This document shows positions 1,975 to 64,000 of a DNA stretch of 64,000 nt, piece after piece. The position numbers were made by a program, and so were the translations under genes. Source of the stretch: a virus (Duplodnaviria; Caudoviricetes). Numbering within the stretch: the stretch's first letter is position 1; the number at the start of each line of letters is the position of its first letter. Under the pieces are notes generated by a model. The model did no database searches. It had not been told where the DNA came from and saw only the letters and a list, made by a program, of their open reading frames with translations. The stretch lies in the IMG/VR virus record IMGVR_UViG_3300027969_000040; one strand, 5' to 3'.

Positions 1975-3810
1975 TTATAAAGTCACAGTAGTGGTAATTG
2001 TACTTACACCAGCACTAATCACAGCAGCGTTCACAGTGGTAGTTGCACTGGCACTGGTAGTAACTGTAATTGCACTGGTAGTTACTAAAATATTACTGGT
2101 GTAGAATACTATACTAGATCCTGTTGAAGTTAACGTTACATTGGCTGTTACTCTTGCACCACTGATATCATATGCATCAACCGTATATGTAGTGGGAATT
2201 GTAGTACCACTGTAGTTGTAACTAGTAGCGGCCGGTGTTACCGTAATAGTAGCCGGCATACTGCCCGACAACAGATGTACACGCCCATAAGCCAACGGAC
2301 CTTGATCTACCGCCCATATACGCCCTAAGCTATCTCTACCTATGCTGTTAAATTGATAGTTGTAACTAGCTGTCAAGTTCCATCCAGTCACTGCACTGTT
2401 GAAACTGTACACATAGGTATAATTGTGTGTGATGATAGCCATTAATGTTCTAGCATCATTTAACCAGCAGATATTCTTTGGTGTTGCCGGAACTGTCATG
2501 GCGCTATGGAATGTAGTCTGTGTGTAGTCGGTGCTACTAACACTGTAAGTCATAAATGTACGCTGTGCAACATTACCATCAAATATACCACCAGCACCAT
2601 GGAACTGCATCAGTGTTAGATATCTGGTACCACTGAAAGTAAACGACTCGTTATAAACGATACGTTGCATACCAGTGGTAACCGATACGCTACTGGCAGT
2701 TACAGTATCTGGATACCAATATGAGTTTTGAGTGGCAATGGTAGTTGTAATAACATTACCAAATCTTGAAAATGTATCGTTTGTTTTATTCCATAAAAAA
2801 TAGAAGGGGTGATATGCACCAGCGGTATCAAAATATGGAACATAGAATCCGGTCTGGCCACTAGTAACACTCGGGCTAGTATTAGGGTCTATAAAAGTTC
2901 TGCTGGCAAATTTTGGTTGGAATGTACCACCGGTCGGGGTTGTTCTTGCGCCGCCTGCACTACCACCTGTCCTACCATCAGCAGACGGGCTAGTATTAAA
3001 TATTCCCGGGTTGGTAGCTGTAGTAGTACCATCATTATACTTGTAGATGTTTTGTGTGTAGTCATTACCAATGTTATTGTTTAAGAACATGGCCAAACCG
3101 TCAACACTACTTACGCCCAAGAATTGCACTGTACTAGTCCCCGACCCTGCGCCTGCGGCTGCAATAGTAGGTGCTGCGGCACTAAACATGTTAGGTAAAT
3201 GCGCACCCTGGGTAAATCCCGGAACATAAGCAGTAACATGGTTATTTGCCACTAGTACCATGTTATTGGTACTGGGATTTCTGTAAACTGGAAATCCTGT
3301 ATAGGCAGCTGTCTGAGTAGCATTTTGCAACGGGAAACCTGTGCTACTATCAGTGTTTGTATTAACACGACGATAATAGGTAAACAAATCACCAGCTGCT
3401 AGCAGCGTCTGCTGATTGTAGCTAATAAGCACCTGATTATTAACACCATCTGTATCATATCTGCTTTGTATAATAGGGCGTGTAGGATCCATACTAGCAA
3501 ACGGTGCTTGGTCTAGGTTATTACTTTGCACTGCTTGAGTATTGAATGTAGCATGGCGAACAAAAGTCACTTCACCTTTGAGTTGCAACATGCCGCCCAA
3601 GGCTTCTGGCGCACCGGTTACTGTACTGTAGCCAAATGTGCCATAACCAGTTCCGGTGGTACTCCAACTAACGGTTCTATCAAAAAACACGCTCAAATTG
3701 GCACTGCTAAAGGCTTCATTTTGGAAATACAATTTTCCAGAACTTGGATATGGATCCTCTGTGAGTGCTGGGACTTGTACCCCGTATTTTGCTGTCCTAA
3801 TTATTGCCAT
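1975..3810 (-). CDS. Virion accessory protein (611 aa), beta-rich, probable propeller-like region plus C-terminal Ig-like domain
   Basis: Long Thr/Ser/Gly-rich ORF with TAGGAG RBS and upstream late promoter; C-terminal alternating V/T strands. Confidence 0.75.
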   Translation of the reverse strand: MAIIRTAKYGVQVPALTEDPYPSSGKLYFQNEAFSSANLSVFFDRTVSWSTTGTGYGTFGYSTVTGAPEALGGMLQLKGEVTFVRHATFNTQAVQSNNLDQAPFASMDPTRPIIQSRYDTDGVNNQVLISYNQQTLLAAGDLFTYYRRVNTNTDSSTGFPLQNATQTAAYTGFPVYRNPSTNNMVLVANNHVTAYVPGFTQGAHLPNMFSAAAPTIAAAGAGSGTSTVQFLGVSSVDGLAMFLNNNIGNDYTQNIYKYNDGTTTATNPGIFNTSPSADGRTGGSAGGARTTPTGGTFQPKFASRTFIDPNTSPSVTSGQTGFYVPYFDTAGAYHPFYFLWNKTNDTFSRFGNVITTTIATQNSYWYPDTVTASSVSVTTGMQRIVYNESFTFSGTRYLTLMQFHGAGGIFDGNVAQRTFMTYSVSSTDYTQTTFHSAMTVPATPKNICWLNDARTLMAIITHNYTYVYSFNSAVTGWNLTASYNYQFNSIGRDSLGRIWAVDQGPLAYGRVHLLSGSMPATITVTPAATSYNYSGTTIPTTYTVDAYDISGARVTANVTLTSTGSSIVFYTSNILVTTSAITVTTSASATTTVNAAVISAGVSTITTTVTL

Positions 3811-57465: not shown

Positions 57466-57495
57466 AAAAAAATAGCTGCCACAGCAGCTATTTTT
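57466..57495. terminator. Rho-independent terminator, symmetric/bidirectional
   Basis: AAAAATAGCTGC-caca-GCAGCTATTTTT, 12-bp inverted repeat with A/T tracts on both sides. Confidence 0.85.
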
Positions 57496-57509: not shown

Positions 57510-58520
57510 TTAAGCGTTTGATATTTTGATGTTAACATCGGCTGCAAAGTATGGTTGATTGTCATATACTTTAGTACCGCTAGTACCATTTGCAGTCCAT
57601 GCTACTGAACTATCACTTGCAAATTGATGACTAGCACCGGTACCACGAGTTACTCGTGCTCGATGATTTGATAACTTTGTAATGTAATATTGATTGCCAG
57701 CAGTGTCGGTCGCTGTGATAGAAGCTTCGCCGGCTGCATTTACAGCTGAATCTTTCAACTTGACAATACCAGTTCTTGTACCATCTGTTACTTTATAACG
57801 ACGACCAGAAACTTGTCTAATTACATCAACTGCGGTTGCTGAACCACCAGTTAAGTATGCTGTCATAGTAATTGCATTCTCGTTTTGACCAACTACAGCC
57901 GATGATCCCATTACTGCATCACCAGTAACCGATTGGCTAAATGATACAGCCGCATCGGTTGGATCGGTATATCCAGAACCGTTGTTAATCATCAACACTG
58001 ATTTGGCACGATAACGCAATGTCAATGTTGCGCCAGTGGCTGTACTTGCTGAGCCGTCGGCGTGTGTTACTGTGGTTGCTTGTGCCCCAGTTGCTAAAGC
58101 ACCCGATGCATACAAGAATGTGCCACGGCTCAATGGTGTTACAGCAGTAACATCGTCGCCGCCGGTTCCACCAATTGTATTAACTGTAAAAGTTGCTGTG
58201 CCGGCGGAAGTAGTAACTGTTAGAATATCACCGGCTACGTATCCAGCCATTGTACCGCCAATGGCAGTTGCACTTTCAACTTCAGATGTAATACTACCAG
58301 TTGCACGTACAGCACCTAGTGCTAACTTGTCTGGATCACTGAATGTAGTCGATGGTCGTACTGTATACGCACCCAGGGCAGTTAATGTTACACTAGCAAT
58401 CTGATTACCACCAAGACCGTCATCGCCTTGATTTGCAGAATTATGTGCGTTTGTACTTTCGGCACCATTAGCGCCGATGTTGCGATTACCAAAATATTTT
58501 TTATTTAAAGGACGTCCCAT
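57510..58520 (-). CDS. Conserved-looking virion protein immediately after capsid gene (336 aa)
   Basis: MGRPLNKKYFGN start; strong AAGGAG RBS; own late promoter and terminator, suggesting high expression. Function unknown. Confidence 0.8.
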   Translation of the reverse strand: MGRPLNKKYFGNRNIGANGAESTNAHNSANQGDDGLGGNQIASVTLTALGAYTVRPSTTFSDPDKLALGAVRATGSITSEVESATAIGGTMAGYVAGDILTVTTSAGTATFTVNTIGGTGGDDVTAVTPLSRGTFLYASGALATGAQATTVTHADGSASTATGATLTLRYRAKSVLMINNGSGYTDPTDAAVSFSQSVTGDAVMGSSAVVGQNENAITMTAYLTGGSATAVDVIRQVSGRRYKVTDGTRTGIVKLKDSAVNAAGEASITATDTAGNQYYITKLSNHRARVTRGTGASHQFASDSSVAWTANGTSGTKVYDNQPYFAADVNIKISNA

Positions 58521-58541
58521 TTTATTTTCTCCTTAAGAATT

Positions 58542-58599
58542 TATGGCGTTCTATGCCATACGCGGTTGGATTTCCGCATAAAACTTGCCCTATGCAAGT
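58542..58599 (-). ncRNA. Candidate structured 5' leader (three tandem hairpins)
   Basis: ACTTGC/GCAAGT, ATGCGG/CCGCGT and TATGGC/GCCATA stems in series between the late promoter and RBS. Confidence 0.5.
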
Positions 58600-58608
58600 C
58601 GTACTGTC

Positions 58609-58615
58609 TATTTAT
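58609..58615 (-). promoter_or_regulatory. T4-type late promoter ATAAATA
   Basis: Downstream of the capsid terminator, upstream of the structured leader. Confidence 0.75.
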
Positions 58616-58648: not shown

Positions 58649-58671
58649 AAAAAAGGCTCCGAAGAGCCTTT
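58649..58671 (-). terminator. Capsid-gene terminator with cUUCGg tetraloop
   Basis: Minus strand AAAGGCTC-TTCG-GAGCCTTTTTT; C(UUCG)G loops are typical of T4-like terminators. Confidence 0.9.
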
Positions 58672-58714: not shown

Positions 58715-59884
58715 TTATTGGAACGATAGATTTTGTACAGCGATCTCAGATACGTAGTCACCTGCGTTGCCTAAAGAACTTGCTGTGTTTGTTAATTCAA
58801 CATATCCATAACGTGTCATGAAACCAACTACTGGCTCAAACGTTTGTGGATCAAGAACAACACCACTGCTCATCAATGGAACATATGGGCAATAGAATGC
58901 TGCTGCGTCAGCTTCGCTGGAACCTTTGTATCCAACTAGAACTGGCTTTTGGTCGTCAGCATAGCTGTCAACGAAAATACGCATTGCGCCATTCAATGTA
59001 CCAACAAACTTAGTGTTTGTAGGTGCTTCAAATGTACCTTCTGTAGTGCGAGCAAAAGCACTAGTTGTAGCAGACTGTAGCACAGTTAGTGCAGCAGATG
59101 AAACAACAGCCCAGTTTGCAGCGCCACGACGTGTACGTTGTGCAATTGAGTTAGCTGCGCGGTTAATTAAAACAGCTAGAGCAGCATGCTCGTCACCAAC
59201 GAATGTTGCGGTTCCGGATACAGCAGCCTGATTGTAATAGAATTCAGTTGCAGCTAGTGAGCGCAATGATGCTAAAACTTCTTGGTCAATTTCAACTGTA
59301 ATTTCTTGTGCTAGAGCAGCCATGATTTCTGCCTCAACATCCAAACCGTGCATAGCTTGTGCGTCTTGAGCAGCTTCAAATGTCCAACGAGCAGATAGCT
59401 TACGAGTACGAGCCTCAACTACTTGCTTCAAGATTTGAACATTGATACGATTTCCTGGTACACCTTCTAATGCACTTGTTGAATATGCTCTTGATGTTGC
59501 TGGGTTACCAGAATATGCTGTAGCAATTTTGAATGGGCTTAGTGCTTCGTCGCCAACGCTAGCGCCATCGTTTCCTGCGGAAACATTATCAGCATAACGA
59601 ACACGTAGAGTGTGGATCTGTGCAACAGGTCCGGTCATTGGTTGTACACCAACGATTTCGTTAGCAATAACGGTAGGCATTACACGACGAATAACTGGAA
59701 GAATTACACGGTTAAGTGTAGACATATTTCCAGATGTTGTTGCACCAGTGCTTGCTGTCTCAGCTAGATTTCTGCGAGTATTTTCTAGGATAATACTCAT
59801 TGTTGTGCGGCGTGATCCTTGTAGACCTTCTAGCAGGGCATCTTTAGTTTCGCCCCAACGGCCTTCTAATAGTTCTTGTGTCAT
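58715..59884 (-). CDS. gp23: Major capsid protein, T4 gp23-like (389 aa)
   Basis: VGVQPMTGPVAQIHTLRVRY, TRKLSARWTFEAAQD, IMAALAQEITVEIDQE, AAFYCPYVPL and GFMTRYG are gp23-family motifs. Confidence 0.97.
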   Translation of the reverse strand: MTQELLEGRWGETKDALLEGLQGSRRTTMSIILENTRRNLAETASTGATTSGNMSTLNRVILPVIRRVMPTVIANEIVGVQPMTGPVAQIHTLRVRYADNVSAGNDGASVGDEALSPFKIATAYSGNPATSRAYSTSALEGVPGNRINVQILKQVVEARTRKLSARWTFEAAQDAQAMHGLDVEAEIMAALAQEITVEIDQEVLASLRSLAATEFYYNQAAVSGTATFVGDEHAALAVLINRAANSIAQRTRRGAANWAVVSSAALTVLQSATTSAFARTTEGTFEAPTNTKFVGTLNGAMRIFVDSYADDQKPVLVGYKGSSEADAAAFYCPYVPLMSSGVVLDPQTFEPVVGFMTRYGYVELTNTASSLGNAGDYVSEIAVQNLSFQ

Positions 59885-59910: not shown

Positions 59911-61005
59911 TTATTTTAACCCTGCTAATCGACGTAACTCAACAACATTAGTGTTGGATTGAGTTGTCACTTTAGCAGTCTTATCTCCAGTTACTGCAAC
60001 ATGTCCTTCATTTAGAGTAGTCGTAGACTTCTCTTTTGTAGAACTTGATGTTAGTACTGCTGGAAGATACTTATCAAATGCCGACTTTAATTTATCAGTC
60101 TGCACGTTTTCAAGAAGTTCGCGCATTACCACTTGCTTCTCGCGGGTAAGAGTACCCAATAATCCAGAAATTACTTCCTTACGATTAATACTCTCAGTAA
60201 TCACGCGAATTTCGCGATCTTTCGATTCAACAAGCTGACGTGTATCAACTGCGGCTTTAGAAGCCTCATTGATTTGTGCTTGTTGTTGATTAATAACTTG
60301 TTTTAGTTTTTGCAATTCGCGATTTTCATTAAGATGAGTCAATGAAAATTCACCAGCAAAAGCTTCGAATATACGACGGCCAAACATGTTCTCACGAGCA
60401 AGTTGAATGTCTTCTTTGAGTTGTGATAGTTCAGCACCTAGTTTTGTAGTCACTGATTCTTTAACAAGTTGTGCGCTGCTAGCAATGAAACGTTTTTGTA
60501 ATTCGCTAATTTTTTCTCTAGCTTCTGCAACTAGTTTAACTTTAGTTTCGATTACGGCTTGTTTGTCTTGCGCAAATTCTCTAATTTCTCCCGCCAATGA
60601 GCGAACAATGAATTGTTCCAGACGACGATAGTTTTCAGTTTGAATTTTGCGGTCTTTGTGCAACTCTTTAATTTCTTCAGCTAGTTTAGTAGCCATGAAA
60701 TTATTGAATCTGCCAGCACTTTCCATCATGTGGTTTTTAACACGCACACGATCTTCTACTACAGCTTGTTTTTCGCCAACAAATTCTTCAATTTCTTTAG
60801 CGAGACTTTCAGTAACCATTTTGTCTAGGGCTTCTACCATTACTTGTTTGTCATGATTGTAGCGACTAGCCATTTCTTCGCGCAATTCGGCACGAATACT
60901 TTCACGAGCTTCGTTCAACTTGGTTTCCCAAGCTTCGCTGATAGCTGTACGAGTTTCCTCGTTAACAATGCCACTATCTAATAATGGTTTGATAGCATCA
61001 AACAT
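59911..61005 (-). CDS. gp22: Prohead core scaffold protein, T4 gp22-like (364 aa)
   Basis: Position between protease and capsid genes; Glu/Lys/Arg-rich coiled-coil composition. Confidence 0.85.
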   Translation of the reverse strand: MFDAIKPLLDSGIVNEETRTAISEAWETKLNEARESIRAELREEMASRYNHDKQVMVEALDKMVTESLAKEIEEFVGEKQAVVEDRVRVKNHMMESAGRFNNFMATKLAEEIKELHKDRKIQTENYRRLEQFIVRSLAGEIREFAQDKQAVIETKVKLVAEAREKISELQKRFIASSAQLVKESVTTKLGAELSQLKEDIQLARENMFGRRIFEAFAGEFSLTHLNENRELQKLKQVINQQQAQINEASKAAVDTRQLVESKDREIRVITESINRKEVISGLLGTLTREKQVVMRELLENVQTDKLKSAFDKYLPAVLTSSSTKEKSTTTLNEGHVAVTGDKTAKVTTQSNTNVVELRRLAGLK

Positions 61006-61662: not shown

Positions 61663-62598
61663 TTAACGAGTGGTTTTACGTGCTACTTTACGTGACTCAG
61701 CTACTACGCTGCCTTTAGCAACCGGAACTGAACCATCGGTAGTTTGTCCTTCTTTGCCATGATTCTTTTCATAGCTAGTTTCATTCTTGTTGAAGAACTT
61801 GTTAGCACCATTGCCGCCAGGAATATTAACATTGCGTTTAGCGATGTCATTTTCTGTAGCACCTTTGCTATATGCATTGTTTGGCTTAGTATAAGCCTTA
61901 CCTTCAGGTGCCGCTTCCGATCCACCTTGGGCAATATTTTTGTTAGTTCCACCCATGTTGTTCTTAGGTTGATTTAGGCTTTTAGAATTAACAGGGGTAC
62001 TACCACCACTACTGCCAATTAGTTTGCCTTCAGATCCGCCCTTTTTTTCAGCGCCATGACCGTCTTTAACCGGAATAACATATTCCATCAATTCTGAATC
62101 ATCTGGCCCATGCATGCTGTGCATACTTACATCACCATGTACGCCTGGCTCGCCGTCTTCTTCATTTTCTTCGCCAGCAATGATTTTATCAAACTTTGCT
62201 TGCAATTCGTCTAATTCTGCTTCTAGACCCATAACACGATTGGACAAATCTTCTTCGCCTTCTTCGCCGCCGAATGGGTTTTCTTCGCCGCCTTCGCTGC
62301 CTTCTTCGCCGCCTTCTTCGTCGCCAAATGGGTTTTCTTCACCAGAGTCAGAATCTGACGATGGCATTTCCATTTCGCCTTCCTCTTCATCTTGTTCTTC
62401 GCTCATACCAAGGTGATCATTGGAAATTTCGTCTACTAGATCGTCTACACCGTTTGATTCGCCATGTGGGCTAACTTCATCGATTAGATTTTCATAAATT
62501 GATCTTGATTTTTCAACAACGATTTGGTGAAAAAGTTCACGTGCTTTGTCTTCTTGCTCATTGATGATATATTCAATTAGCTTTTCAAATTGGTTCAT
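61663..62598 (-). CDS. Highly acidic prohead core/internal protein (~311 aa)
   Basis: ATG at 62598 behind AAGGAG; EEGGEE/ENPFG repeats and basic C-terminus; occupies the position of T4 core genes 67/68. Confidence 0.75.
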   Translation of the reverse strand: MNQFEKLIEYIINEQEDKARELFHQIVVEKSRSIYENLIDEVSPHGESNGVDDLVDEISNDHLGMSEEQDEEEGEMEMPSSDSDSGEENPFGDEEGGEEGSEGGEENPFGGEEGEEDLSNRVMGLEAELDELQAKFDKIIAGEENEEDGEPGVHGDVSMHSMHGPDDSELMEYVIPVKDGHGAEKKGGSEGKLIGSSGGSTPVNSKSLNQPKNNMGGTNKNIAQGGSEAAPEGKAYTKPNNAYSKGATENDIAKRNVNIPGGNGANKFFNKNETSYEKNHGKEGQTTDGSVPVAKGSVVAESRKVARKTTR

Positions 62599-62651
62599 AG
62601 GAGGCTCCTTGTAATTATGTGAGTTAACCACATTATGTGGTCGCTTAATGA

Positions 62652-62968: not shown

Positions 62969-64000
62969 TTATACCACACCCGGCATCGGAGCATTTGCCC
63001 CGCCTCCAATTGGGGTCGCACCACCACCTGCGCCCACTCCAGCAGCACCGGGCATACCGCCGGGCATACCGCCGGGCATACCGAGATCGCCGCCAGGCAT
63101 ACTGCCATCTAATCCGGGTAATGCTTCGGCATTAGTCATATCACCGCTGATTGCACCCGGTGTTATGCCTACACTACGTAAACCAACATCATTTGCATCA
63201 CCGGCAGTTTTTGTTTCCCCTTGCTCTTCGAGCCATGCTTCTTCGTTTTCGGACATCTCTTGTTCGTTTAGTCCCAAATAACGTTTCATTAAGAATCTCT
63301 TAGAGAAATACGGATATTGCTCTAGCTGCGTATATGTATTGATACGTGCTGCATCAACTTCTGTTTGCCGATATTGTGCAAAATTCTGCGGTTCGTTAAG
63401 ATCTAATGTAAACAATTGACTGTCTATATTAATACCTCTCCAACGCATAAACATCTTAAATTCGTTGTCTAGTTTACCAACAATCATGTTTTGTAATCTG
63501 ACACAATAACGATTAAAACGCCACTCTTGAATTAAAGCAGTACCCACTCTACCGTCAGTAATTGATGCTGTTCCGTCATCTGCACCAGTTGGTAAGTAGC
63601 TGCTAGGAATACGCAAGCCACGGAATAACTTGTTAGTAAAGAAGCGCAAGTCGGTGATTTCACCTAAATTCTGCCCACCTTGCAATACTTCAACTTTGCT
63701 ACCACGGCCTTCGGCTGTTTGTGGAAAGAAAAAGTCTTCGTTAGTGGATATAGGATTGTATGTAGCATCCATCATATTTGCGCCGCCTCCAGTCTGGCTA
63801 GGGATTCTACGTTGTTGAATTTCGTTTTTAACACGCTCAACAAATGCCATGGCCATATGACTTGGCATATTACCAACGTCTACATAAAATGCTCTACGCT
63901 CTGGCGCACGTTGCACACGATAAATGATAATAGCATCTTCGATAAGTTCTTTTTGTTTAAACACTTTAAAAATGTTTTCTAATACGCTATTACCAAAAGG
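62969..64000 (-). CDS. gp20: Portal protein, T4 gp20-like, 5'-truncated by window edge
   Basis: LIEDAIIIYRVQRAPERRAFYVDVGNMP, EDFFFPQ..EGRGSKVE-x-L-x-GGQNLGEI and LFRGLRIPSS are gp20 motifs; frame stays open to base 64000 (PFGNSVLENIFKV). Confidence 0.96.
   Translation of the reverse strand, partial: PFGNSVLENIFKVFKQKELIEDAIIIYRVQRAPERRAFYVDVGNMPSHMAMAFVERVKNEIQQRRIPSQTGGGANMMDATYNPISTNEDFFFPQTAEGRGSKVEVLQGGQNLGEITDLRFFTNKLFRGLRIPSSYLPTGADDGTASITDGRVGTALIQEWRFNRYCVRLQNMIVGKLDNEFKMFMRWRGINIDSQLFTLDLNEPQNFAQYRQTEVDAARINTYTQLEQYPYFSKRFLMKRYLGLNEQEMSENEEAWLEEQGETKTAGDANDVGLRSVGITPGAISGDMTNAEALPGLDGSMPGGDLGMPGGMPGGMPGAAGVGAGGGATPIGGGANAPMPGVV

Follow-up and report, generated by a model that had tools for sequence, protein, structure and literature searches.

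A freshwater-2 leader RNA of Rak2/PA5oct-like jumbo phages and its probable pairing with the start of a putative virion protein gene

The locus and its leader RNA

The DNA analysed here (the window) is a 64,000-nt stretch of the viral record IMGVR_UViG_3300027969_000040 (Caudoviricetes) and carries a T4-like phage head module, including a Gp23 capsid protein and a prohead protease. Portal-like, acidic head and scaffold-like genes (62969-63964, 61663-62631 and 59911-61005) upstream of the capsid gene complete a head module of the Rak2/PA5oct type. The capsid protein is 68% identical to the head protein of PA5oct, and its identity to the counterparts in PA5oct, Sinorhizobium phage Phosso and the Eneladusvirus jumbo phages is 65-68%; complete relatives in IMG/VR have genomes of 318-374 kb. 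The source of the window is a Rak2/PA5oct-like aquatic jumbo phage. The features of the region between the capsid gene and the end of the next gene are, in 5' to 3' order:

58715-59884, minus: gene for the 389-aa major capsid protein of the Gp23 family (Pfam PF07068, E 7e-97), the upstream neighbour, outside the element
58649-58671, minus: terminator-like hairpin and U-run closing the capsid transcript
58609-58615, minus: ATAAATA, a putative late-promoter-like box of the T4 type
58599-58583, minus: P1 hairpin, placed by the Rfam alignment; optional and variable in sequence
58580-58559, minus: P2 hairpin, 7 bp with conserved pairs, proposed as stem 1 of a pseudoknot
58566-58570, minus: UCCAA, the 3' portion of loop 2 and candidate 5' strand of the pseudoknot stem, from covariation with codon 2
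58558-58544, minus: P3 hairpin, 4 bp with free stem covariation and a near-invariant 7-nt loop, N-UAGAAC
58535-58529, minus: Shine-Dalgarno sequence, read from the sequence, covered by the Rfam model and lying within the long connecting loop of the proposed pseudoknot
58521-58528, minus: A-rich spacer, AA-NN-AA before the AUG; candidate minor-groove strand on P2
58515-58520, minus: AUG GGA, start codon (AUG at 58520) and codon 2, 3' strand of the proposed pseudoknot stem
57510-58520, minus: 336-aa MGRP-family gene, probable virion protein, with an N-terminal MGRP motif, a variable beta-rich insert and a C-terminal core
57466-57495, minus: terminator-like hairpin and U-run 3' of the 336-aa gene, read from the sequence

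Because ATAAATA is under-represented in the window (17 copies against 34 expected) and most copies lie directly upstream of genes, we read it as a likely late promoter of the T4 type, in which a TAAATA box precedes late transcripts by a few bases. TAAATA also stands upstream of 387 of the 395 homologous leaders described below and of most cultured homologues. No sigma-70 promoter could be placed upstream of the leader, the count of candidates being at chance level. The 5' end of the leader, and hence the transcription start, is a predicted rather than a mapped position. As the 336-aa gene is followed by a terminator-like hairpin, and the next ATAAATA box (57450-57444) comes after that hairpin, the leader probably heads a monocistronic late transcript. 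One 978-nt metatranscriptome contig covers 57504-58481 with 15 differences, such contigs revealing no start, strand or level.

A sequence-only reading of the window had described three abutting hairpins after ATAAATA as the entire leader of the gene and had been unable to assign them to a known family. Three stem-loops are indeed found on the minus strand at that place, between ATAAATA and the Shine-Dalgarno sequence and AUG, and, as was claimed, none of their stems bears a U-tract. They fill most of the leader rather than all of it, since a short segment at the 5' end and a tail of 23 nt, which holds the Shine-Dalgarno sequence, lie outside them. Their stems had each been given 6 bp; P2 has 7 and P3 has 4, since in the family the intervening UA is part of P2 and additional P3 pairs can form in only 32 of 395 leaders. 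Loops 1 and 3 do both start with AUAG in the window, but this is a coincidence family-wide (AUAG opens loop 1 in 21 of 333 leaders; the usual first base of loop 3 is C, in 297 of 395), so that the unconserved repeat gives no support to AUAG as a recognition element.

The failure to name a family turned out to be wrong, because scanning the entire window against Rfam gave exactly one gathering-level match, to freshwater-2 (RF02980), at 58518-58599 on the minus strand, with 74.3 bits against a gathering cut-off of 49.9 (E 1.7e-9) and over the full-length model, positions 1-84. P1, P2 and P3 fall on the three hairpins of the model, all consensus pairs are formed with no non-standard pair marked, and the conserved P2 arms, the UAGAAC loop, the Shine-Dalgarno sequence and the AUG are all present. 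The window element is a full-length member of freshwater-2, located directly 5' of the Shine-Dalgarno sequence and start codon, i.e. in a cis-regulatory position; the Rfam type is Cis-reg. The model stops at the AUG, and the codon-2 side of the pseudoknot proposed below therefore lies outside it. The model also differs from the leaders gathered here in that P1 is optional in them and in that 8 of 16 deliberately diverse loci score below the cut-off. The freshwater-2 motif reportedly comes from a survey of 224 motifs. The main text of the 224-motif survey (PMC5737381) does not name it, and our literature search found no paper naming freshwater-2 RNA; the family is already catalogued in Rfam, though unexplained.

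Conservation of the leader and its linkage to MGRP genes

Single-sequence folding of the 141-nt region is only modestly better than that of shuffled sequences (z -2.1, with 5 of 200 shuffles equally good). The comparative signal for the hairpins, in contrast, is strong. Our family statistics refer mainly to 395 motif copies. In P2, 99.8% of cells are paired and three pairs show two-sided changes (pair 5: CG 228, GC 19, UA 4; pair 6: GC 127, AU 75, UA 52). P3 is paired in 98.2% of cells and covaries freely, with two-sided changes, while its loop reads UAGAAC in 368 of 395. There is no room for P1 in 53 of 387 leaders, and in 333 of the other 334 it is present as a hairpin of free sequence, with 135 different loops. 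On this comparative evidence, P2 and P3 represent the covarying core of freshwater-2 and P1 is optional. Structural conservation among homologous leaders, on which the sequence-only reading had made its suggestion of a cis-regulatory RNA depend, is decisively present (395 leaders, with P2 and P3 covarying), and the comparison of homologous upstream regions supports a conserved cis-regulatory leader.

Several further features of the leaders were considered. The third pair of P2 is C-G instead of U-G in 16 of 47 Met-Ala leaders against 3 of 348 Met-Gly leaders, a bias that may reflect shared ancestry or a structural link. In the window, loop 3 could pair with the P1/P2 junction, but such pairing was rejected as a feature of the family, as the full 6-nt match occurs in only 72 of 395 leaders and does not covary with loop variants; elsewhere, 4-nt complements of loop 3 are scattered over the 5' end, the tail and the coding region, with no fixed place. 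An upstream reading frame from the AUG inside P2 was likewise discarded (three frames about equally used, and 19 leaders without that AUG). Pairing between the 5' end and the 5' arm of P3 averages 3.35 nt against 3.18 nt for shuffled partners, a small difference that comes from one subgroup.

The proteins encoded downstream of the leaders comprise 117-512 aa and have in common the MGRP motif at the N-terminus and a core of roughly 110 residues, between which the window protein carries its beta-rich insert; identity within the family is only about 20-50%. The 336-aa protein has no Pfam or PHROG match and no sequence relative in the PDB. A profile search finds MGRP homologues in PA5oct, Atu_ph07, fHe-Yen9-04 and Phosso, in agreement with a structure search. 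Because the PA5oct homologue, gp102, was detected by mass spectrometry (it is annotated as "structural protein, ESI-MS/MS"), the MGRP family is most likely a virion component. Fold searches with the MGRP core gave a weak SH3/Tudor-like likeness (best Z 4.9, rmsd 3.6, 52 residues aligned), which shows no RNA binding.

The leader and this protein family are closely linked. Among 80 loci gathered by protein similarity alone, the motif lies directly before the gene in 73, one match is offset and six have none; five of these six motif-less genes come second in their unit, behind a first gene that bears the leader. Searches with patterns of the protein start yielded 345 distinct upstream regions, 321 with the motif, 8 with divergent forms and 16 without, this set overlapping the loci originally found by RNA pattern. 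Conversely, for 380 of the 395 motif copies the protein downstream matches the MGRP profile. The rest are mostly truncated, apart from five unrelated genes, of which three are inserted ahead of an MGRP gene and two (in L585 and L659) have no MGRP gene next to them. A second, unrelated protein family (158-239 aa, with a common GD-x-FYD motif) occupies the first place under the leader in L052 (2492-2977), L322, L470, L585 and L659, and loop 2 of those leaders is mostly unadjusted to their Ala codon. Five genomes that are 91-100% complete have one strong freshwater-2 copy each; three of the five were checked for MGRP genes, and each has a single strongly matching one, located at the leader. MGRP paralogues with a promoter of their own each carry a leader.

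Cultured homologues have a short leader, mostly with TAAATA 15-25 nt before the AUG, in which the motif is absent; control by the leader is dispensable, as these relatives encode the MGRP family without the RNA. In 185,579 prokaryote genomes, 4 of 34 pattern matches are real, all of them in metagenome bins and before an MGRP gene. The bins (L252, L255, L264 and L265) are assigned to two Bacteroidota, a Vampirovibrionales and a Rickettsiales, and they probably include co-binned phage contigs, giving a weak hint of the host at most. The coupling to the capsid gene that had been suggested from the position of the leader finds no support, since in only 165 of 335 cases is a capsid gene present in the 900 nt upstream. 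In two strains with a 98-99% identical protein, two genes stand between the capsid gene and an unchanged leader. Such extra genes, absent from the window, are seen in L001 (1799-2906) and also L002, and comprise a 128-aa ORF and a 217-aa ORF, pirin/cupin-like by eye.

Pairing of loop 2 with the start of the gene

Loop 2 ends nearly always in a run of C, and the few Met-Ala genes had G there; further Met-Ala cases were gathered with a pattern that left loop 2 unconstrained. Of 348 loops before an AUGGG start, 334 contain CCC or WCC, and most of those before AUGGC contain GCC, GC or GUC. The window's own subfamily comprises three versions of loop and codon, UCC:GGA, UGC:GCA and AGC:GCU. On a tree of 352 core domains, inferred with the N-terminal columns left out, codon 2 changes 13 times, and the loop partner agrees with codon 2 in 338 of 346 scored rows (306 Gly/G-matching and 32 Ala/C-matching, with 8 discordant). 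Eight independent supported tree pairs gave, on average, 7.4 changes in the same direction and 0 in the opposite one (median p 0.016), and an Ala start without a compensating loop occurs in 4 of 36 cases. A pair counter applied to a plain MAFFT alignment found 82.7% of cells paired and 5 two-sided changes, against 0.9 in shuffled data (0 of 500). The stem in question is short and only one of its pairs covaries well; in the window, UCC of loop 2 faces GGA of codon 2 in 3 contiguous Watson-Crick pairs only. The covariation nevertheless places the structure across the initiation region, and from these comparisons loop 2 very probably pairs with the AUG and codon 2 to form a pseudoknot, a pairing that the sequence-only reading had overlooked.

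In three leaders that have lost the C-run of loop 2, a CCCAU in the tail pairs with AUGGG instead. Four leaders (L369, L374, L410 and L432) are divergent forms of freshwater-2 that keep P3 and its loop, have a rewritten P2 and can cover AUGGG a second way by the CCCAU of the tail. Two short leaders without the motif, those of Phosso (L206:5960-6010) and Atu_ph07 (L234:1855-1900), can still pair with AUGGG, which may be chance. A different conserved leader replaces freshwater-2 upstream of MGRP genes in L458, L474, L514 and L686 (in the last at 2171-2204, minus strand). The four copies found consist of TAAATA followed by three hairpins, the internal loop of the middle one being flanked by CAGUAAGUC and GACGACCACU, and the three copies scanned have no gathering-level Rfam match.

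The spacer before the AUG is also distinctive. Of 291 unbiased leaders with the motif, 249 show the pattern AA-NN-AA, against 1 of 22 homologues that lack the motif; in other genes of these loci, about 53% of the bases at this place are A. The conservation of the spacer may stem partly from shared ancestry. By analogy with H-type pseudoknots, the A-rich spacer may lie in the minor groove of P2 and form A-minor contacts there.

These data bear on the possibility that the leader is a 5' stabiliser, as the sequence-only reading had also suggested, or a ribosome standby element, and raises the output of a high-copy virion protein, with a loop 2 : start pairing that is transient or helps to deliver the start codon. 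The stems do occupy the 5' end, P1 persists as a hairpin of freely varying sequence and the Shine-Dalgarno sequence is strong and unpaired, but P1, the obvious 5' cap, is absent from 53 of 387 leaders. Nor would stabilisation by itself lead one to expect loop 2 to follow codon 2, and as a pure stabiliser the RNA would leave that covariation unexplained. We give this explanation little credence.

A candidate translational operator

We propose that the freshwater-2 leader at the 5' end of the late transcript folds into P2 and P3, whereupon the 3' end of loop 2 would pair with the last two bases (UG) of the start codon and with codon 2. The result would be an H-type-like pseudoknot with P3, the Shine-Dalgarno sequence and the A-rich spacer in its long loop. 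As the start codon would be tied up and the Shine-Dalgarno sequence left unpaired, translation of the virion protein would be lowered. A bound protein is probably needed, because the pseudoknot stem has 3-5 bp only, and it might hold the pseudoknot shut by reading the invariant P3 loop and the P2 base. The likeliest binder would be the gene's own unassembled product, acting in feedback as S15 does on rpsO; this is a guess, for which we see somewhat less than an even chance, and another protein is a distinctly weaker candidate. A gene-specific protein operator is favoured by the single copy per genome, the linkage to one protein family wherever it is located and the invariant unpaired bases. 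Altogether, a protein-stabilised translational operator with a pseudoknot occluding the start codon seems to us a rather probable interpretation of the leader. Of the operator coupled to capsid assembly that had been imagined before, the operator itself is the best reading, resting on the pseudoknot covariation, and the position-based link to the capsid gene finds no support.

Two well-studied operators offer a comparison. The autogenous rpsO/S15 operator of Escherichia coli acts by entrapment, a hairpin loop pairing downstream across the initiation region (PMC3985624). The Shine-Dalgarno sequence stays in a long pseudoknot loop in both systems, although there is no sequence relation and no Rfam match between them, the partner here is the AUG with codon 2, and the product is a virion protein. 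The translational operator of T4 gene 32 is a pseudoknot in a phage 5' leader upstream of the gene, self-regulated by gp32 (PMC10690425). It is similarly tied to one gene, but its pseudoknot lies upstream of that gene, whose product is an ssDNA-binding protein, whereas the pseudoknot proposed here takes in the start codon.

The pseudoknot could, alternatively, act alone as an intrinsic (or temperature- or Mg-sensitive) brake on an abundant late mRNA, with the P3 loop and the P2 base engaged in tertiary contacts within the RNA. A 7-nt loop of the form N-U-A-R-A-A-C fits a U-turn or T-loop-type pattern, and the P3 loop has no conserved base-pairing partner; moreover, the divergent leaders would cover AUGGG by a plain hairpin, and the two short cultured leaders can pair with it as well. 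However, a simple hairpin or a weaker Shine-Dalgarno sequence would suffice as a constitutive brake, and unpaired bases that are near-invariant despite protein identities of about 20-50% suggest recognition by something. We therefore regard the intrinsic brake as unlikely.

A compact pseudoknot with invariant nucleotides and an A-rich strand by the start codon also recalls riboswitches such as preQ1-I, a small H-type pseudoknot in which a hairpin and an A-rich 3' strand close a second, short stem within the initiation region. The same arrangement is proposed here, and a minimal form without P1 of about 60 nt exists, so that a small molecule might bind in a pocket of the P2/P3/pseudoknot core and close the pseudoknot over the start codon. 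The freshwater-2 leader differs in having no Rfam match to preQ1-I, in the extra hairpin in its long loop and in preceding a structural rather than a metabolic gene. It is attached to essentially one structural-protein family, with one copy per genome and no metabolic regulon, and the few real matches in prokaryote genomes all precede an MGRP gene; an association with genes sharing a metabolite, the usual mark of a riboswitch, was not found. A small-molecule riboswitch is accordingly improbable in our view, and it is equally doubtful that the core, at about 60 nt, represents a new class of riboswitch, a sensor RNA specific to phages that tunes a surface protein of the virion in aquatic jumbo phages.

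Our analysis adds to a catalogued family its phage context, its link to a virion protein, the optional nature of P1 and the probable start-codon pseudoknot, and it implies that the Rfam model ought to reach past the AUG and to treat P1 as optional. An unexplained RNA is thereby placed in Rak2/PA5oct-like jumbo phages, tied to one virion-protein family and given a testable mechanism. The structure of the RNA appears to constrain the second residue of the protein, since Gly-to-Ala changes at codon 2 are accompanied by changes in the loop. If the virion protein does bind the RNA, the leader would represent a rare case of a phage structural gene under the control of a feedback operator.
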